From positions 7,887 to 71,886 of IMG/VR virus record IMGVR_UViG_3300036846_001111: a stretch of DNA of 64,000 nt; one strand, 5' to 3'. Every line of letters starts with the position of its first letter. Position 1 is the stretch's first letter. Made by a program: the position numbers and the translations under genes. The stretch comes from a virus. Shown piece after piece: positions 30,467-49,789 of the stretch. The notes below the pieces were generated by a model. That model saw nothing but the letters and a program-made list of their open reading frames with translations, did no database searches and had not been told where the DNA came from.

Positions 30467-30711
30467 CCGAGCGTTTTGTGGCCATCCGCGGCGACGTCTG
30501 GGACCAGACGACGATGCCGGCGCGCCGCCTGCATCTGGACGATGCGCGCGCGCTCGCTGACACGTGGCGGCGCGAGGCCGAGGCCTGCCGCCAGAAGGGC
30601 GCCTACGATCAGGTCAAGCTGTGGTCGGGGCCCGCCGCGTTGCTGGTCATAGCGATCGACTCGGCCGTCGTGCAGCGCCGCATGATGGGCTGGAAGGATA
30701 CCGCGTCGTGA
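30463..30711 (+). CDS. Hypothetical protein
   Basis: GTGA coupling. Confidence 0.65.
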   Translation: MTERFVAIRGDVWDQTTMPARRLHLDDARALADTWRREAEACRQKGAYDQVKLWSGPAALLVIAIDSAVVQRRMMGWKDTAS

Positions 30712-30890
30712 GCCGCGAGACCCAGAAGCAGCGGATCGCGCGTCTCGACTGGGCGCTCACCGAGATCACCCGGGTAACGGCGATCCCGGCCAACAAGCGC
30801 GGCGATCTCGACTGGCTGCGCGCCGCCTGCAGCCTCGCCCATGTCTACGCCAAGGCCGGGCGGGCGCCGCCCCCGGAGCCGCCGCCTTGA
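30708..30890 (+). CDS. Hypothetical protein
   Basis: GTGA coupling. Confidence 0.6.
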   Translation: MSRETQKQRIARLDWALTEITRVTAIPANKRGDLDWLRAACSLAHVYAKAGRAPPPEPPP

Positions 30891-31000
30891 TGCCGCAACG
30901 CCGCCCTCAGGTCTGGCGGGAAATCCTGATCCTCGCCGCGCTCAGCCTCGCGCTGTTCGCCGGCATCCTGTTCGCCATGCTGAAAGAGCACGCCCTATGA
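30890..31000 (+). CDS. 36-aa single-pass membrane peptide
   Basis: MPQRRPQVWREILILAALSLALFAGILFAMLKEHAL; coupled on both sides. Confidence 0.55.
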   Translation: MPQRRPQVWREILILAALSLALFAGILFAMLKEHAL

Positions 31001-31884
31001 GAGCCTTCCGCTTCAATGGTCAGCAGATCACCCAGCCCGGGGCCTACGTGGGCGTCGACATCGACCGCTACCACGGCGACCTTGTCCCGCACCGCTTCGT
31101 CACCGCCTCGTCGCTGAAGCGCGCTGATCGCTCGATGGCTCACTTCTGGGCCTTCTGCGCGTGGAACCCCGACCGCGAGCCGCCGGACGTCGACACCGAC
31201 GCGCTGCGCCTGGGCAAGGCCTCGCACCTGCTGGCGTTCCAGCCCGAACTCTTCAATCTCCAGTTCGCCGTGTGCCCCTATGGGGATGACTACCGGCTGA
31301 AGGACGCCAAGCAGTGGCGCGAGCAACTGCCGGCCGACATCCTGCCGCTGAAGCCGAAGGAGCACGTCACCATCCAGCGCATGGCGGCCGCCCTCTACAG
31401 GGACCCGGACGCGCGCTCGCTGTTCGCCAAGGGCCTGCCCGAGATGACGTTCTGCGCGCCCGACCCGATCACCGGCATCTGGATGCTGACCCGGCCGGAC
31501 TTCACGCCGGCCGCCAACGGCCGCGGCCTCGTCGACTACAAGACCGCCGAGAACGGCGCCTGGGAGCCCTTCGGCCGGCGCGCGTTTGACTACGGGTATC
31601 ACCTGCAGGTAGCCCTGGCGGTCGACGTCGTGGCGGCCGCGACCGGCGAGATGCGGCCGACCATGTGGTTCGTGGTGCAGGAAAAAGAGCCGCCCTACTG
31701 CGTCTCGGTGCACCGCTGGGAGCCGGACCAGATCATGTATGGTAGACGCAGAGTGCGCGATCTACTTGACCAAATCGCCAAGTGCGTCGAGACTGGCGAG
31801 TGGCCCGGCTACGGCCCGGCTTCATCGCTGGTCACGCCCTTCTACATCCAACGCCAGATCGAGAACGCTGATGCCGCCGTCTGA
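30997..31884 (+). CDS. PD-(D/E)XK exonuclease, RecE/ExoVIII (DUF3799)-like
   Basis: YH...S.LK, G.A.H, RPD...LVDYKT, YGYHLQ.A, FVVQEKEPPY, C...GEWPGY. Confidence 0.9.
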   Translation: MRAFRFNGQQITQPGAYVGVDIDRYHGDLVPHRFVTASSLKRADRSMAHFWAFCAWNPDREPPDVDTDALRLGKASHLLAFQPELFNLQFAVCPYGDDYRLKDAKQWREQLPADILPLKPKEHVTIQRMAAALYRDPDARSLFAKGLPEMTFCAPDPITGIWMLTRPDFTPAANGRGLVDYKTAENGAWEPFGRRAFDYGYHLQVALAVDVVAAATGEMRPTMWFVVQEKEPPYCVSVHRWEPDQIMYGRRRVRDLLDQIAKCVETGEWPGYGPASSLVTPFYIQRQIENADAAV

Positions 31885-36926: not shown

Positions 36927-37102
36927 ATGCCGTAGCGCCGGCGCCAGACCTCGCGGCGCTCGGCGTAGGCTTGGTTGAAGGTGACGCCCAGCCACGCCGC
37001 GGCGTCCCTGATCTCGTCCATCGTCTTGGTGCGGAGCAGTAAGGCGACGCGCTCGGCGTCGGACCAATCGGTGGTCGGCGGGACGAGGCGCAGCGTGCTC
37101 AA
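36923..37102 (-). CDS. Hypothetical small protein
   Basis: TTG start coupled to the upstream membrane gene. Confidence 0.5.
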   Translation of the reverse strand: MSTLRLVPPTTDWSDAERVALLLRTKTMDEIRDAAAWLGVTFNQAYAERREVWRRRYGI

Positions 37103-37254
37103 TGGCTGGTGAGTGCGCCCCAGGCCCAGACCACCGCGGCGGCCAGGAAGAAGCCGCGCGCGATGCGCTCGGCGAGCGGCACGCCGGGCCACGTGGCGAT
37201 CAGCCAGAAGATGAAGCCGACCACGACGAGGATGGCGAAGATGATGGTGGGCAT
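37099..37254 (-). CDS. 51-aa two-TM membrane protein (not in ORF track)
   Basis: AGGAG RBS; MPTIIFAILVVVGFIFWLIATWPGVPLAERIARGFFLAAAVVWAWGALTSH. Confidence 0.7.
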   Translation of the reverse strand: MPTIIFAILVVVGFIFWLIATWPGVPLAERIARGFFLAAAVVWAWGALTSH

Positions 37255-39862: not shown

Positions 39863-40156
39863 ATGACCGACCCTGTCATCGTCGCCGCGGCCATCCTGCT
39901 GATGCCGTCGCTGGCGCCGGACATCCACGTGCCGGCGCTGCACGCCTTCACCGTCCCGCAGGCCGTCGCCGCCTACTCGACGCTCTGCCAGACCGACTAC
40001 CGGATCATCCGCGAGGCCGAGGCCACCACGCTGCCGCACGCCGATCCGCACGCCCTGGTCAGGGCCCGGCAGGCCAACGGCAACCGGCTGACCATCGCCC
40101 CGCGTCCCGCGCCGGCGCCGCGCCACTACCGGCATCGCCACCACCACCACCGATGA
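39863..40156 (+). CDS. Hypothetical protein with His-rich C-terminus
   Basis: GAGGAG RBS. Confidence 0.65.
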   Translation: MTDPVIVAAAILLMPSLAPDIHVPALHAFTVPQAVAAYSTLCQTDYRIIREAEATTLPHADPHALVRARQANGNRLTIAPRPAPAPRHYRHRHHHHR

Positions 40157-40329
40157 ACGAGATCGTCGCCGATGCCGCCCTGATCGCGGCGGCAGTCAGC
40201 ATCGCGGCGGCCTGTTTCGCGGTTGGCTGGAGGATCGGCTACTGGATGCGTGAGCGCCACTGGGCGCGGGTGGCGCGCGAGGAGGCCGAGTCGGCGGCCA
40301 GCTACAAGGGCGCGGACGGGCATGAGTGA
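40153..40329 (+). CDS. Small membrane protein (58 aa)
   Basis: ATGA coupling; hydrophobic N-terminus. Confidence 0.55.
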   Translation: MNEIVADAALIAAAVSIAAACFAVGWRIGYWMRERHWARVAREEAESAASYKGADGHE

Positions 40330-44833: not shown

Positions 44834-47800
44834 TCACCCATCCCGCTTCCCGGCCGTCCAGTAAATCTCGCCTTTGTGCTGCCCATACGGGACGACGTAG
44901 GGCGTGCCCGGCGGCAGCTTCTTGGCGGTCGCTTCATCGGCCGGGTGGCGCGGGAAGGCCTTCTTTCCGGCCTCCGACATGCCGGCGTAGTAGGGGATGT
45001 TGTCGGACATCGGCGCTTCGTAGCGGCTGAGCGGGTGCTCGCCGGCATAGTCGGTGTCGTACTGGCCGACGTTGTCGACGCGGTTCTGGTTGGCCCCCCA
45101 GTTCTTCCAGTATTCCTGGCCCCACTTCAAAGCCTGCGCCGTCTGCACCGACAGTTCGTAACGAGCATCGGGCTGCATCTTCGGGTCCGGCACGGTCTTG
45201 CCGATCAGGTTGGTCACGGTCGCGGGCGCGCCCTCGGCGAGATGGCTGAGATTCGCCTGCATGATGGTCTGCGCCGCGGTCAGCTTGGTCGCGAGGTCGT
45301 TGGACGCCTGATAGTCGCCGAAGGCCTTCTGGACGATCGGCCCGATCCCCGGCAGCGACGACAGCCGGCCGACCACCTCGGCGATCTGCGGCGTCAGCCG
45401 GTTGGTGTTGTGGTCGCGGTAGGTCAGGTTGATCGCGTTTTCGAGATTCCAGGCCGCCGGCGCCGTGGCGGACCATTCGCTCGCCTGCGCACCCTTGGCG
45501 ACCTTGGCCTTGGCAAACTCGCCCTCGGTCAGGTTCTGCTGACCCAGCTTCTGGCTGTACTGGTAGTACCCGTTGTACGGGTTGCCGTTGATGTCGTAGG
45601 GCGTCGTCTTGCCGTCACGGATCGACTGCGCAGTGGCGAGCATAGTCGCACCCTGCTGCTTCTCTTCCGGTGTCCGCCCCATCTGGACAAGGTCTTGGCC
45701 GTGCTGCGTCAGCCACTCCGGATCGGACATCTGCTGAAGCTGGACCGGAGGCTTGGGCTCGGGCAGATCGATGCCGGTGTTGAGGTAGTAGCCGCCAGCT
45801 AGCTTGTCTTTAAGCGGCGCGGTTGCAGCGATGTGACGCTTGACGCCAGTCGGCGCTGGCGCGGGGACATGAGCCACTGCTCCATCTCCAGGCGCTCTTG
45901 TTGCGACCGCTGCTGGCGGATGGCTGCCATCACCCCCTCGTACTTCGCCCGGTCCTCCCGATGGCGGTTGTCCGCCGCTATTAGGATGCGGCTGAGCGCC
46001 GACAGCAGCGGCGCCATCACCAGTAGGAGCAGGAGTAGGAGGCCCAAGGTTCGCTCCGTCAGCAGGCGGTGGGGTGGCGGAAACGCCATGCGAGGCGGCC
46101 ACATCTGAGCCACCCATAGCATCAATATACGGCCCCATCACTTGCTCATATCGCCGCGCATAGTCGTCGTTCGTGAGGAAGTTGCCGCTCATATCCTGCC
46201 AGCCACGCTCCGCATTGGGACCGAGCGCCGGCCTGAACATCATCTGGAAGCGCTGCTGCGCCAGTTGCGCCGCCTGGGCGCGGGCCTGCAGCATCCCGGC
46301 TTGAGCGGTCATCACACCGGTCGGGGCGCCGGCCGCCAGGGTCGTCTCCTGCAGGTTCTTCTGCGCGGCGCCCATCTCGTAGGCACGCTGATCCTGATAG
46401 CCCTTGGCGAACTGGCCAGCCCCAACCAGGGCGGCCACGAGCGGATGCTGGGTCGGCGCGCTCGCCCAGGCCGCCGCGCCTTCCAGCGCCGGAATCCAGA
46501 AGTCCGGCGACGTGATCTTGTCCATCAGCGTGCGCTTGGTCGGGTTCTGGGCGTGGACGAGGCCCTGCAAGTTCTCGGTCGCGGCCTGCGTCGCCGCCTC
46601 CGCGGACGTCTGGTAGTCCTCCGTCGTCGCGGGCCTCATCTGCACGGCCGGCGCGGCATCGGCTGCCGGCCCAGGCTGCGCGGCCGCGGCGAGGCCGGTG
46701 GGCGCCGGCGCGGCATCGACCGACGCGGCAGCCGCAGCCGGGGTGGCGGCCGCACCGTGCTTGGGCACGGACACCGTCGGATTGTCGGGATCGTTCGGGT
46801 CGACGAGGCTGCCGTCAGCATAGCCGGCGCGGCCACCTGCAGCGCGGCCGCGGCGCGACATCTGCGCTATGCGCTGGCCGGCCCAGCCGACGAACTGCCC
46901 GGCCGTCTTGCCCTTCATAATCGAGGGGTTGGCGGCGATCGAGGCGGGGCTGACTACTTGGCTGAGCGGCGTCGACGGGTCGGCGTGCAGCACCCGGATG
47001 GCGTCGTGCGGGCCGAGCACCCAAGCCGAGTAGGCGTTGCCCGGCGAGGTCGGATCGATGCCGGCGTGGGTGAGCGCCAGGGCGTTCTGCTTGGCCAGCA
47101 CCGGCGCCAGTTGCGCCGATAGCTGGTCGCCCTCGGGCGTCGAGCGCAGCGCCTTGATATCGCCCTTCGACATGCTGGCGGCGCGCTGCGGGTACTGCTG
47201 GCGGAACAGCCCCTCGAACGTCGAGTCGATCATCTGGAAGGGGCCGCGGGCCGACGAGGACGGATTCTTGCCGGTGCCCTCGGCGCGCGCGATCGCGCCC
47301 AGCAGGCCACCGGGAGGGGCAGGTCCGGCGTCGGAAGGCCCCGCAGCCGCGCCAGGAGGGGCGCCAGAGCCGCCCGGAGGCGCGGCGCCTGCGAAGCCAG
47401 CGGCGGCCGCCGGCGGGCCTCCAGCGGCGTCTGTGGGGCCGCCAGCCTGTGGTGCGCCGCTGTCGGCATGGGCGAAGCCGCTGGCTGGGTGCAGGTTCGC
47501 CTCGAACCGGCGCAACAGGATGTTGTCGACCGGATCGCCGCCGGACGGGTCCTCGCCGCCGAGCGCCTGATCGACCGCATCCGGCGCACCACCGTCGGCA
47601 AAGCCGATGCGGCCGCCACGGTTGGCGAACATCGCGGCGATCTTCGCGATGTCCATGATGTCGGACATGGTCTGGTCGCCGCCGCTGCCGCTCTTGGACG
47701 GCTGGGAGACCGCAAGCTGGGCGCGCGGCGCTTCCTCGGGGATGTCGAGGCCCGCGCCGTGGTCGTTATAGAGATCGTCGGGCGTGTCGCCACCCTCGGC

Positions 47801-49789
47801 GCGTCTGATGCGGCCGCCGCGCGACGCCAGCATCAGGAACGGCAGCAGGCTCGCCATGCCGCTCGCGCCGGCGCCGATGCCCGCGCCGATGCCCGCCATG
47901 CCGGCCCCCGCAGCGCCAGCCGCAGCGCCGGCGCCACCCAAGCCGCCCATCAGGCCAGAGATGCCGCTGCCGATCGCGGGCGCGAGTTTCGCAGCGCCCT
48001 CGCCGATCTGGGCGATGTCGGCCCCGGCGCCGAGCGCCTTGGAGAAGCCGCTCTCGCCCTGGCTGGGCGGCGCGGCCGTCTTCAACTGCTGCGGGGTCTG
48101 GCCTTGGGTAGGGATATGCAGGCCCGGCCCCGAGCCGCCGCCGTAAGGGTTGTCGTTCTCGGGATCGGAAAGGTCGCCGCCGCCCTGCCGGTGGGCGCGC
48201 GCGAAGCCGCCGAAGGCGAACGGGACGACCGGATCGGGCTCGCGCCCAGAAGCCCACTGCGCCATCTCAGCAGTGCTCGGCGGCGCGGCAGCCTCGGCCA
48301 AGTCCGCGTCCGAGATGCCCTTGGTCGGATCGAAGGTCGGCGACCACGACTGGTCGCTCAGCCAGTTCGCCGCCTTCTGGCCGGTCTCTGCCATCGACTT
48401 GACATCGCCGGCGGCCTCGGCGGCCTTGTGCAGGCCGGCCTGGGGCGATTCCGTCGGCGGGTGGGCGATCTGCAACTGCCCGACCGGCAGGCTCGCCTGA
48501 GGCACGTAGCCCATGGCGCCGCCGTGGGGCGCACCACTGGCGCTCGCACCGTAGAGCGCGCCCTGCTGGTAGGGCCCGTACATCTGCTCCTGCGCCTGCA
48601 GCAGTTGCGCGATGACCATCGGGTTGGCGCCGCCAGGGTACATGCCCCACTCGGAGAGCCCGCCGCCCTGGCGCGCGATGCGCCCGCCGGCGGCGCGCGC
48701 GCGGCGCGCCTCGGGCTCGGGTTCCCAGTCGTCGTTGGCGGCGAGCGCGAAGCCGGCGGATTCGGCGGTGGCGCGGCCATAGTCGACGGCCAGGAAACCG
48801 CTCGGGTGGTGGATGATCGCCTCGGGGTGGAAGCGCGTGGTCTCCTGGGCCGAGAGGCCGATCCGCACCGTCGGATCGCCGCGGTAGCGGAAGCGGATGA
48901 CGTTCTGGCCTTCGAACGTCTTGCCGATCGGGATGATGTCTTCCTTGAGCCGATCGTCAGAGAATAGACCGCCGGGCTGCGTGGTCGTCGTAGTAGAACC
49001 GGACAGAGCGCCGGTGCCTTCAGCGATATTGGCCAAGAATTGAGCGGTCTGGAACGGGTAGCTTTGCTGTTGAAGGAACTGGTTATACAAAGCTGTCAAC
49101 CCAGCTTGCTGGGTCTGTTGCTCGACTTGGCCCGCGCCCAACTGTGCTTGCGCACCACTGAGGGCAGCGCCCTGCGCGCCGGTGCCGAGGCCGGCCAGCG
49201 CTTCGCCGGTCTGCTGCAGCGCGCCGCGGTTGGCCTGCTGCGCGGCGAGGCCGACGCCCTGCTGCTGCATCGCCGTCTGCTGGGCCTGCTGGTAGGCGTC
49301 GGAGAGGATGCCTGAGTAGGTCTGCCCGGCGGCCAGTTGCTGCTGCTGCGCGAGGTTGGCCGCGGCGATGCCCGAGCGATCGCCGCCGAACGCGCCCGAC
49401 TGGATCGCGGTGCCAAGCTGGCCCGCCTGCTGCTGCTGGTTGGTCTGGTTGATCAGTTGCTCGGTCGAGCCCAGCACGCTGCCGACATACGGGTTGTAGT
49501 ACTGGCCGATGTTGAGCGCGCCGGGGTCCACCGCCTGCGATCCAGCCAGGGCAAAGCCGCTGGCCGCGTTGAAATACGGCTGCGCCATGCCGGCCGCGGT
49601 GTTGGTATTGGCGATGCCGGCTTCCTGGGTCGGCGTCACCGGCGCGACGAAGGCGTTCGGGTTGCTGCTGTACTGCTGGAACGGCGTCTGCGCGACGTTC
49701 TGGGCGGTGGCGTTGACGGCGTTGTACCTCGCCAAGACTTCAGGCGGGATGGTGACGCCAGAGGTCGAGGTACTGGTCTTACCGCCCAT
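44834..49789 (-). CDS. Large ejection/internal virion protein: Gln-rich N-domain, internal peptidase S74-like chaperone domain, lysozyme/transglycosylase-like domain
   Basis: SDDRLKEDI...IGLSAQE...G.LAVDY; AIARAE..KNPSSSARGPFQMIDSTF; five GG doublets. Confidence 0.85.
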   Translation of the reverse strand: MGGKTSTSTSGVTIPPEVLARYNAVNATAQNVAQTPFQQYSSNPNAFVAPVTPTQEAGIANTNTAAGMAQPYFNAASGFALAGSQAVDPGALNIGQYYNPYVGSVLGSTEQLINQTNQQQQAGQLGTAIQSGAFGGDRSGIAAANLAQQQQLAAGQTYSGILSDAYQQAQQTAMQQQGVGLAAQQANRGALQQTGEALAGLGTGAQGAALSGAQAQLGAGQVEQQTQQAGLTALYNQFLQQQSYPFQTAQFLANIAEGTGALSGSTTTTTQPGGLFSDDRLKEDIIPIGKTFEGQNVIRFRYRGDPTVRIGLSAQETTRFHPEAIIHHPSGFLAVDYGRATAESAGFALAANDDWEPEPEARRARAAGGRIARQGGGLSEWGMYPGGANPMVIAQLLQAQEQMYGPYQQGALYGASASGAPHGGAMGYVPQASLPVGQLQIAHPPTESPQAGLHKAAEAAGDVKSMAETGQKAANWLSDQSWSPTFDPTKGISDADLAEAAAPPSTAEMAQWASGREPDPVVPFAFGGFARAHRQGGGDLSDPENDNPYGGGSGPGLHIPTQGQTPQQLKTAAPPSQGESGFSKALGAGADIAQIGEGAAKLAPAIGSGISGLMGGLGGAGAAAGAAGAGMAGIGAGIGAGASGMASLLPFLMLASRGGRIRRAEGGDTPDDLYNDHGAGLDIPEEAPRAQLAVSQPSKSGSGGDQTMSDIMDIAKIAAMFANRGGRIGFADGGAPDAVDQALGGEDPSGGDPVDNILLRRFEANLHPASGFAHADSGAPQAGGPTDAAGGPPAAAAGFAGAAPPGGSGAPPGAAAGPSDAGPAPPGGLLGAIARAEGTGKNPSSSARGPFQMIDSTFEGLFRQQYPQRAASMSKGDIKALRSTPEGDQLSAQLAPVLAKQNALALTHAGIDPTSPGNAYSAWVLGPHDAIRVLHADPSTPLSQVVSPASIAANPSIMKGKTAGQFVGWAGQRIAQMSRRGRAAGGRAGYADGSLVDPNDPDNPTVSVPKHGAAATPAAAAASVDAAPAPTGLAAAAQPGPAADAAPAVQMRPATTEDYQTSAEAATQAATENLQGLVHAQNPTKRTLMDKITSPDFWIPALEGAAAWASAPTQHPLVAALVGAGQFAKGYQDQRAYEMGAAQKNLQETTLAAGAPTGVMTAQAGMLQARAQAAQLAQQRFQMMFRPALGPNAERGWQDMSGNFLTNDDYARRYEQVMGPYIDAMGGSDVAASHGVSATPPPADGANLGPPTPAPTGDGAAAVGAQPHPNSGGQPPSGGPGEVRGGDGSHPPAAVATRAPGDGAVAHVPAPAPTGVKRHIAATAPLKDKLAGGYYLNTGIDLPEPKPPVQLQQMSDPEWLTQHGQDLVQMGRTPEEKQQGATMLATAQSIRDGKTTPYDINGNPYNGYYQYSQKLGQQNLTEGEFAKAKVAKGAQASEWSATAPAAWNLENAINLTYRDHNTNRLTPQIAEVVGRLSSLPGIGPIVQKAFGDYQASNDLATKLTAAQTIMQANLSHLAEGAPATVTNLIGKTVPDPKMQPDARYELSVQTAQALKWGQEYWKNWGANQNRVDNVGQYDTDYAGEHPLSRYEAPMSDNIPYYAGMSEAGKKAFPRHPADEATAKKLPPGTPYVVPYGQHKGEIYWTAGKRDG
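45799..46047 (-). CDS. Putative overprinted membrane protein (+1 frame inside the ejection gene)
   Basis: GGAG-N6-TTG; MGLLLLLLLVMAPLLSALSRILIAA then a charged helix; G/C-ending codons favour this frame over the host frame locally. Confidence 0.45.
   Translation of the reverse strand: MGLLLLLLLVMAPLLSALSRILIAADNRHREDRAKYEGVMAAIRQQRSQQERLEMEQWLMSPRQRRLASSVTSLQPRRLKTS

Follow-up and report, generated by a model that had tools for sequence, protein, structure and literature searches.

A candidate small membrane-protein gene in the +1 frame of a phage ejection-protein linker

The ejection-protein gene and its linker

The window is the whole 64,000-nt stretch of viral DNA analysed here. On its minus strand, positions 44834..49789 encode P0001, a protein of 1651 aa. 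An ejection-protein domain forms its N-terminus; the protein further contains a weak Peptidase_S74-like motif, a middle part resembling transglycosylases and, at the C-terminus, a module composed of a pre-domain, a linker and a post-domain. P0001 matched PHROG 6121 (E 1e-19) and PHROG 4287 'DNA ejection protein', while its match to Pfam PF13884 was under the cutoff. The tblastn search matched P0001 to phage tape-measure transglycosylase regions as well as to 'internal virion protein D', and the genes beside 44834..49789 matched tail fibre and virion structural families (PHROG). Judged by this family similarity and by its place among virion genes, the host gene is a podovirus ejection or internal virion protein.

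The main-frame inter-domain linker (aa 1222–1330; 45800..46126, minus strand) is rich in Gly, Pro and Ala, and codon counts confirmed the odd T- and A-ending codons that an initial annotation of this DNA had reported there. We found 45 homologues of the C-terminal module. These carry an unalignable low-complexity linker in the equivalent place, followed by a conserved Lys/Leu/Gly/Tyr motif, and every full-length homologue has the main-frame low-complexity linker here. A sequencing error or compensated frameshift was rejected on this ground, and also because the contig of the probable source run was identical over the region. Within the phage collection, the post-domain was not found in any cultured phage.

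Layout of the +1-frame ORF

An ORF in the +1 frame lies wholly inside the host gene on the same strand, reading codon positions 2 and 3 of the main frame together with the next position 1. The full ORF comprises 108 codons (45799..46125, minus strand), from TTG at 46125 to TAG at 45801–45799, with other possible starts at ATG 46122, 46104 and 46089 on the same strand. Its likeliest coding part is the candidate P0049 (45799..46047, minus strand), a product of 82 aa starting at TTG 46047. A GGAG ribosome-binding-like motif (46054..46057, minus strand) is located 6 nt before this TTG (46047–46045). Residues 2–25 (45973..46044, minus strand) form a membrane-like hydrophobic segment with a top 19-residue Kyte–Doolittle mean of 2.53, followed in the translation by a charged, helix-like C-terminal tail of 57 aa (45802..45972, minus strand) that arises from A-ending codons of the main frame. 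The TM-like stretch, the charged stretch behind it and the GGAG had all been described in the initial annotation, and the translation from TTG 46047 was exactly as quoted there. The AT-rich TATATT that it had placed upstream is present at 46129–46124 (minus strand); however, no promoter-like or terminator match was found, and TATATT belongs to none. The missing promoter-like site and the use of TTG as start both count against a gene.

We found no homologue of P0049 among proteins of 59–189 aa, no second copy of the +1 peptide in its own genome, and no PHROG or Pfam match at an E of 0.01 or better; among RNA data sets, none was listed as containing this DNA. An antisense gene, the plus-strand ORF at 45833..46108, was rejected for its poor codon scores (plus frames −0.28 to −0.97) and its Arg/Ser/Cys-rich peptide.

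Codon use and hydrophobicity in the window

GC3 of the main frame fell to 0.37–0.53 over about 46144–45874 (30-codon windows with starts at 46144–45919) compared with 0.844 for the whole gene, and this drop coincides exactly with the ORF span; the main frame here reads GGG CCT CCT ACT CCT GCT CCT ACT GGT and onward. The GC1/2/3 of the +1 ORF was gene-like (0.69/0.46/0.82). T-ending codons accounted for 21/69 in the linker, 20/142 in the other linkers of the gene and 46/584 elsewhere in it, and A-ending codons for 15/69, 8/142 and 9/584, respectively. This surplus of T- and A-ending codons and the resulting +1 hydrophobicity are beyond chance. The codon log-odds over the ORF favoured the +1 frame (+0.01; main frame, −0.55). 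As a control, 165 other +1 windows in the genes of this phage gave a mean of −0.73 (sd 0.18, max −0.17), and real-gene windows gave a mean of 0.51 with a 5th percentile of 0.05, the +1 ORF sitting only at about this 5th percentile.

The open +1 frame by itself is not beyond chance: 17% of 3000 resamplings with the codon usage of the gene had no +1 stop over 108 codons. Openness says little because a +1 stop requires T at the main second position, which is rare in Gly/Pro/Ala linkers, and the high GC3 of the +1 frame is forced because Gly, Ala and Pro codons start with G or C. The open +1 frame and its mostly G/C-ending codons, both noted in the initial annotation, are real but not beyond chance.

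A rival reading, short of even odds and somewhat less probable than an embedded gene, is that there is no second gene and that the +1 ORF is a by-product of NCT, GGT and A-ending codon use in a fast-evolving low-complexity linker, as the genetic code automatically yields an open, hydrophobic +1 frame from such codons. Such usage could come from slippage or expansion of short T-containing units, from avoidance of extreme local GC, or from rare codons that slow inter-domain translation. Besides the frame being open by construction in such linkers, a by-product is favoured by a six-base micro-repeat of 3.3 copies detected by repeat search at 46022..46041, by a total GC of the linker (about 0.66, from position values) that stays near the genome average (0.70 for the window), and by the absence of a P0049 homologue among the proteins searched. 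However, the micro-repeat accounts for merely about 20 nt of the T-ending run, and the T-ending codons are clustered and followed by A-ending ones, such that only 0.03% of within-linker synonymous shuffles matched the observed hydrophobicity. RNA folding over the linker also gave no structure signal (z = −0.26), which likewise speaks against a by-product.

Comparison of three close-subfamily loci

The close-subfamily DNA comparison comprised three loci only: the window and the distant relatives L004 and L021. In the homologous linker, L004 has a +1 ORF of 60 aa and L021 one of 55 aa; both peptides have two membrane-like segments, whereas the window ORF has one segment plus the tail. The three +1 peptides share no sequence; the +1 ORF is kept in kind, not in sequence, in 2/2 close-subfamily relatives with DNA. 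The top 19-residue hydrophobicity means were 2.53 in the window, 2.33 in L004 and 2.34 in L021, and resampling with the gene codon usage reached the observed value in 0/3000 runs at each locus. The +1 log-odds was 0.15 in L004 compared with a maximum of −0.23 in 52 windows of its own gene, and −0.04 in L021 compared with a maximum of −0.14 in 47 windows.

The T-ending codons were enriched over the other linkers of the same gene at all three loci (Fisher P = 0.009 for the window, 0.0004 for L004 and 0.002 for L021). These other linkers were themselves T-enriched relative to the gene remainder (14% vs 8% in the window, 13.5% vs 6% in L004 and 25% vs 17% in L021), a milder bias of about twofold, and some general linker effect therefore exists, in favour of a by-product. 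This general bias nevertheless failed to reproduce the signal, because resampling with the codons of the other linkers reached the observed hydrophobicity in 0/5000 runs for the window, 0/5000 for L004 and 1/5000 for L021. In addition, the L021 linker has T-ending codons at 19/32 positions and A-ending codons at 0/32, which suits a hydrophobic constraint better than a rare-codon preference.

A ribosome-binding motif was detected 5–8 nt before a start codon, immediately upstream of the hydrophobic run, in all three loci (motif-spacing-start: GGAG-6-TTG in the window, GAGGAGG-5-GTG in L004 and GGGAGG-8-ATG in L021), the motifs of L004 and L021 being the stronger ones, and this is a further point against a by-product. 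In the resamplings, we counted how often such a motif and a start codon occurred no more than 10 codons from the hydrophobic run. For the window, L004 and L021, the chance was 0.20, 0.13 and 0.03 when linker codon usage was applied, and 0.003, 0.023 and 0.066 when the usage of the gene was applied. This ribosome-binding-site test, like the thresholds of the analysis, was chosen post hoc, with the data already in view.

Programmed +1 frameshifting offers another account of these motifs, in which they would be stimulators instead of start signals. The ribosome would then make a second ejection-protein form, consisting of residues 1 to about 1246 and a C-terminal membrane anchor. Ejection proteins must enter membranes, the +1 frames of L004 and L021 end shortly past the hydrophobic part, and in the window GGAG is followed 5 nt later by CTT G, a context similar to the Leu-codon +1 shift site of prfB. 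However, L004 and L021 have nothing comparable, so that no shift-prone site is common to the three loci, and in the window no stop or clearly hungry codon stands behind CTT. No stable structure was found over the linker, where the one Rfam match was sub-threshold (E 0.98; 17.5 bits vs a gathering score of 56), and a start codon follows the motif in all three loci. We regard frameshifting as most unlikely.

Survey of linkers and relatives

The linker survey covered the window and 40 of 80 loci, the remainder having no ORF of at least 900 codons that bears the family motif. Homologous genes with a GC3 of 0.65 or higher contain 53 Gly/Ala/Pro/Ser/Thr-rich linkers, of which only three reached a +1 mean of 1.6 (the next was 1.56). 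These three were the linkers of the window, L004 and L021, all at the homologous position, which a by-product of linker composition does not readily explain. We also scanned 91 coding-like ORFs (57,930 codons) from high-GC loci, from which L021 was left out owing to its GC3 of 0.66. Three places had an alternative-frame mean of at least 2.0, and two of them were the linkers of the window and L004. The third, at 30887..31000, is a plausible stand-alone membrane-protein ORF of 37 aa.

Six more distant relatives have a linker at this place, and five of them showed no +1 hydrophobic excess (L073, P = 0.19; L093, P = 0.23; L037, P = 0.67; L049, P = 0.08; L103, P = 0.28), which counts against a conserved gene; two of these five carry +1 stops. 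L071 was the only significant one of the six; its linker is a repetitive run of T-ending Ala and Pro codons, as would be expected of a by-product. L084 was not counted, the segment taken being pre-domain and not linker. Seven further relatives had no linker and many +1 stops.

Single-protein scans of viral contigs and metagenome contigs yielded no close relatives of the window. Apart from distant members, the alignment-based scans brought back only the known L004 and L021, and queries with the C-terminal regions of these two loci hit nothing except their own contigs. A genome-contig scan with alignment A1 gave 10 loci, with the C-terminal module only in L093.

One close relative (run X2, record 11) was compared with the window. 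There, 165 unlike letters stand in place of the 216-nt core of the ORF (45821..46036), between flanks of 92–97% identity. The replaced core counts against a conserved gene because dual coding should make a region more conserved than the sequence on either side, and such hypervariability between close strains suits a by-product. The initial annotation had named interruption of the +1 frame in close relatives, together with no detected translation, as grounds for dropping the nested gene; the frame is open in the distant relatives L004 and L021, and in the X2 relative its core has been exchanged. Its proposal of a nested +1 membrane-protein gene is partly supported, by a linker-specific codon anomaly that recurs with motif and start in L004 and L021, and weakened by the lack of a homologue (59–189 aa), of sequence conservation and of a stable core between close strains.

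An exchangeable core would also fit a relic, in which a former small gene or foreign coding DNA merged into the linker through gene fusion or insertion, kept a coding-like composition and is no longer separately translated. High-GC coding DNA read out of frame gives Gly/Pro/Ala/Arg-rich peptides of low GC3, as observed, and the overlapping-gene codon-usage criterion, as given in the available part of PMC3494269, makes the +1 frame look older. About 9 database proteins of 270–311 aa consist of the post-domain alone, and split forms may therefore exist; however, several of these short proteins may be fragments, and the start of P0004 is a semi-conserved Met internal to the fused form. The main-frame low-complexity linker of every full-length homologue also argues against a relic, as does the +1 peptide having neither a homologue (59–189 aa) nor a second genomic copy. 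Moreover, the three linkers are mutually unalignable and an unselected relic should decay, yet hydrophobic ORFs and start signals persist. We consider a relic very unlikely.

A proposed embedded membrane-protein gene as the best explanation

We favour a real embedded gene for a small membrane protein in the +1 frame of the ejection-protein linker, with a probability of roughly 45%. We infer that translation would begin inside the late mRNA of the ejection gene, at GGAG-6 nt-TTG (46047), giving a predicted product of 82 aa with one N-terminal membrane-spanning helix and a charged helical tail of 57 aa. The main-frame linker is probably unstructured and would tolerate nearly any Gly/Pro/Ala-rich sequence, so that its third positions could double freely as the second positions of embedded codons; T there would specify hydrophobic residues and A charged ones. 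The logic would be that of lambda Rz1 within the Rz linker. Given the position-equivalent ORFs of L004 and L021, what is constrained would be the nature of the product as a small membrane protein and not its sequence, with fast turnover of the cassette. By extension, this ejection-protein subfamily of uncultured high-GC soil and peat phages may share a position-conserved, sequence-hypervariable embedded +1 gene with its own start, encoding a membrane protein of 55–82 aa, a generalisation that we put forward tentatively.

If the gene is real, its function is a matter of guesses. Foremost among ours, and still doubtful, is a late membrane-active accessory protein of the holin or pinholin type; a protein that helps the ejection protein to insert into the membrane is a somewhat unlikely guess, something else altogether is unlikely, and exclusion or defence is quite unlikely. 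The superinfection-exclusion or ejection-partner role suggested in the initial annotation, by analogy with P22, is unsupported. The ORF matched no family (PHROG, Pfam), and a location within a late structural gene is an odd placement for exclusion.

An embedded gene would have several consequences. It would represent a second, independent 'Rz1-in-the-Rz-linker' solution, here inside a virion gene, and would mean that unstructured linkers of large virion proteins can hide small membrane proteins, that the genes of ejection proteins may harbour a membrane partner coupled to them in function, and that frame-specific codon and hydrophobicity tests find such genes without sequence conservation. Turnover of the cassette even between close strains would suggest an arms-race or lysis-timing role. 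If the gene is not real, the locus is a warning that a high-GC Gly/Pro/Ala linker with T-ending codons automatically mimics a membrane-protein gene, ribosome-binding-like motifs included.

Comparison with known systems

To our knowledge, very few nested same-strand genes have been proven in dsDNA phages, and gene callers reject such genes by rule. Our full-text literature search found no nested gene within an ejection-protein gene. The closest parallel is lambda Rz1-in-Rz, likewise a small same-strand +1 ORF wholly inside a larger phage gene, where, in the available text of PMC5295617, the mature part of Rz1 is encoded within a mutationally silent, unstructured linker of Rz. The candidate ORF similarly sits at a probably unstructured host-protein linker and may have a start of its own inside the host gene. 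Rz1 differs from the candidate in several ways: it is a lipoprotein of the outer membrane that carries a signal sequence and a lipoylated Cys, it is conserved and backed by genetic proof, and it lies in a lysis gene, whereas the host gene in our case encodes a virion ejection protein. Neither P0049 nor P0002 has any Cys, and thus no lipobox Cys of an o-spanin (Rz1-like lipoprotein).

The candidate also resembles overprinted viral genes, for which the available part of PMC3494269 describes one frame with genome-like codon usage and one without, one disordered partner and fast evolution. Contrasting codon usage of the two frames, a disordered partner and fast evolution are all seen here, but the frame with atypical codons is the linker of a large, clearly ancestral gene, and the second frame is putative.

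E of phiX174 is read in a different frame from within D, a structural or assembly gene. Like E and other single-gene lysis proteins, as described in the available text of 10.1101/2023.10.16.562596, the predicted product is small with an N-terminal membrane helix. Those proteins come from very small ssDNA and ssRNA phages whose size is strongly limited, whereas the present phage has 72 kb of dsDNA.

SieA of P22 is encoded by a separate, larger gene that is not nested. The likeness would lie in the link between a membrane protein and the ejection genes in a podovirus-like phage; in contrast to SieA, the candidate ORF is nested in a late gene, which is unusual for exclusion, and has no similarity to it. 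Known exclusion proteins of the SieA or Imm type gave no family match (PHROG, Pfam) and no homologue of 59–189 aa.

Holins and pinholins are small phage membrane proteins with 1–3 membrane helices and a charged C-terminus, and holin families are very diverse in sequence. P0049 agrees with them in size and layout (82 aa, one helix plus charged tail), and so do the 60- and 55-aa ORFs of L004 and L021 with two helices each. It differs in having no PHROG or Pfam family match and in lying within a structural gene, not beside an endolysin. Among 10 nearby or membrane-type small ORFs inspected for a lysis cassette, none had a PHROG lysis match. Other small membrane-protein ORFs in the genome could be the holin.

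Host gene and its linker

The virus record was complete (71,886 bp with direct terminal repeats), and the GC content of the window was 69.7%. The host gene P0001 (44834..49789, minus strand; 1651 aa) contains a +1 open reading frame (ORF) at 45799..46125 (minus strand). The naming of P0001 as an ejection protein is reasonable: its N-terminus matched PHROG families with the annotations 'DNA ejection protein' and 'virion structural protein', the protein matched an 'internal virion protein D' in tblastn, transglycosylase regions of phage tape-measure proteins were matched by its middle part, and the adjoining genes matched tail-fibre and virion structural families. The N-terminal domain of P0001 was shared by 80 viral loci, most of which had a different C-terminal module. 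The closest relative (L002, 5992-10653) was 74% identical to P0001 over the first 480 aa only, with an unrelated C-terminal part, and two loci, L004 (GC3 0.83) and L021 (GC3 0.66), had the C-terminal module in common with P0001 at 28-34% identity. The family is mosaic. The post-linker domain on its own made up some nine database proteins (P0004, P0021, P0023, P0026, P0028, P0029, P0035, P0036 and P0046; 270-311 aa), which may be forms of a split gene or fragments from the edges of contigs.

An HMMER search recovered 45 homologues of the C-terminal module. All full-length homologues carried an unalignable Gly/Pro/Ala/Ser linker at the place of the +1 ORF, followed by a conserved motif, and a contig from the probable source run was identical to the window across the linker region. 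These results indicate that the main-frame linker is genuine, and rule out both an assembly artefact and a recent compensated frameshift as the source of the linker reading. At window position 45120, beside a run of four C, one base was absent from a separate assembly of the probable source run, and its loss would put the final ~95 codons of P0001 out of frame; homologues supported the window's frame to the end.

Two further regions of P0001 were recorded. At 48836..48961 (minus strand; aa 277-318), a weak match to Peptidase_S74, the intramolecular chaperone of endosialidase (E 0.004, below cutoff), directly followed a conserved Thr-rich motif that was nearly invariant in 20 homologues; together these hint at self-cleavage of the N-terminal domain. 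Nowhere was the main protein more hydrophobic than in a Gly/Ala/Met-rich stretch at about 47830..48010 (minus strand; aa about 594-653), which is Leu/Pro/Phe-rich at its end; with a 19-residue mean of about 1.5, this stretch may be a membrane-active segment of P0001 itself.

Codon usage across the linker

The initial annotation had proposed an overprinted membrane-protein gene here, and its sequence observations were borne out: a main-frame run of CCT, ACT and GCT codons, an open +1 frame (a 108-codon ORF) encoding hydrophobic and then charged peptides, a GGAG 6 nt before TTG 46047, and a TATATT. The frame-specific GC3 analysis that it had called for agreed, with main-frame GC3 at 0.37-0.53 over about 46144-45874 compared to 0.844 for the gene. 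The +1 frame was also preferred by a codon log-odds model trained on the phage's own genes, in windows of 25 codons with starts from 46159 to 45889; over the whole +1 ORF, the model gave +0.01 for the +1 frame and -0.55 for the main frame. The 165 other +1 windows never exceeded -0.17, and real-gene windows averaged 0.51 (5th percentile 0.05). In each of the window, L004 and L021, no other +1 window in the gene had log-odds as high as those at the linker. By a codon-usage criterion for overprinted viral genes (PMC3494269), the +1 frame looks genome-like and the linker frame atypical.

Because a +1 stop requires T at the second position of a main-frame codon, which is absent from Gly/Pro/Ala/Ser/Thr codons, the +1 frame is open by construction; zero +1 stops occurred in 17% of resamplings. 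The high GC3 of the +1 ORF is likewise forced, since G or C is the first base of Gly, Ala and Pro codons. What is truly anomalous is a surplus of main-frame codons that end in T or A: T-ending codons numbered 21/69 in the linker, versus 20/142 in P0001's other linkers and 46/584 elsewhere, and A-ending codons 15/69, versus 8/142 and 9/584. The T-ending bias was also present in the other linkers but was milder there, so some general linker effect exists, which lends support to a +1 ORF that is a by-product, with no second gene. This is a real possibility; however, the +1 signal is specific to this one of the P0001 linkers and is not reproduced by the codon bias that linkers show in general.

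Hydrophobicity of the +1 frame in three loci

The homologous linkers of L004 and L021 also held +1 ORFs of almost wholly uncharged hydrophobic residues, with uncharged runs of 46 residues (L004) and 43-48 residues (L021); both had a ribosome-binding motif and start in front of the ORF, GAGGAGG-5-GTG leading to 60 aa in L004 and GGGAGG-8-ATG to 55 aa in L021. Under synonymous resampling with gene codon usage, the observed hydrophobicity was reached in 0/3000 cases each in the window, L004 and L021, and, when codon usage was taken from the remaining linkers of each gene, in 0/5000, 0/5000 and 1/5000, respectively. Shuffling codons within the linker gave, in the same order, P = 0.0003, 0.032 and 0.15 for hydrophobicity and P = 0.035, 0.0007 and 0.013 for uncharged-run length. 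Of 53 such linkers in homologues whose GC3 was 0.65 or more, these were the only three with a 19-residue mean above 1.6. A scan of coding-like ORFs in high-GC loci (57,930 codons) found an alternative-frame mean of 2.0 or more at only three places: the window linker, the L004 linker and a plausible ordinary 37-aa membrane-protein gene, which serves as a positive control. A ribosome-binding motif with a start beside the hydrophobic run, a test defined after the data were seen, arose by chance in 20% (window), 13% (L004) and 3% (L021) of resamplings with linker codon usage.

Conservation and candidate function of the +1 ORF

The +1 peptides of the three loci were unrelated in sequence and differed in layout. 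A close relative from another study (sequencing run X2) had 38 differences from the window in 476 nt (45345-45820) and 5 in 175 nt (46037-46211), while 45821-46036 was exchanged, in frame, for 165 unlike letters. Outside the linker, 25/39 listed differences lay at main-frame third positions and 18/31 changed codons were synonymous; the relative's main gene is therefore under purifying selection, whereas the ORF core lacks conservation. The ribosome-binding motif, TTG and stop of the +1 ORF all lay within the retained flanks. We regard it as improbable that the +1 frame is a relic, and about equally improbable that it yields a +1 frameshift product.

More distant relatives with the post-linker domain were taken from the HMM search, with L103 added. 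The +1 hydrophobic excess was missing in 5/6 of those having the linker here, and the L073 and L103 linkers also had +1 stops. L071 carried a significant +1 poly-Leu stretch (value reached in 0/2000 resamplings), but it was broken by Lys/Arg and is not a clean membrane segment. The poly-Leu stretch comes from a long run of T-ending Ala/Pro codons at the homologous linker (about aa 1036-1095) of L071, a relative with a GC3 of 0.48. Seven further relatives lacked such a linker and had many stops in the +1 frame. No homologue of the +1 peptide was found among database proteins of 59-189 aa, nor any PHROG or Pfam family match, promoter-like site at the +1 ORF, or Rfam family or RNA structure signal at the linker, and no RNA run was among those listed for the region.

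The +1 signal thus recurs in three lineages with mutually unalignable linkers, which, judging by the X2 relative, are subject to fast turnover. It is unlikely that a slow mutational bias shaped linker sequence this young alike three times, and the recurrence suggests that either selection on the +1 frame or some process specific to the linker is at work. We put the probability of a real embedded small membrane-protein gene in the +1 frame at roughly 0.45, well short of proof because of non-conservation, the few loci with DNA and post hoc statistics. If real, this candidate gene would have an arrangement like that of lambda Rz1, the mature part of which, as described in PMC5295617, occupies the +1 frame of an Rz linker that is unstructured and mutationally silent. 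The 82-aa product from TTG 46047 (P0049) was rejected as an o-spanin because it has no Cys. The candidate product shares size and layout with holins and pinholins, but has no family match and is not beside a lysin. The superinfection-exclusion role suggested initially is conjecture by analogy with P22, with nothing further in its favour.

Other small membrane-type ORFs

An ORF of 37 aa (30887..31000, plus strand), with a single strong membrane-like helix, lay between ORF 30564..30890 and a 347-aa ORF (30841..31884), and looks like an ordinary small membrane-protein gene of the sort that would escape long-ORF calling. The 347-aa ORF probably starts in truth at an internal Met near 30997, since its first 52 residues resemble Arg/Pro-rich sequence read out of frame. 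Two ORFs without a PHROG match had gene-like codon positions and membrane-like helices, one of 58 aa with one helix and a charged tail (40153..40329, plus strand) and one of 51 aa with two helices (37099..37254, minus strand); both are possible lysis or membrane accessory genes.
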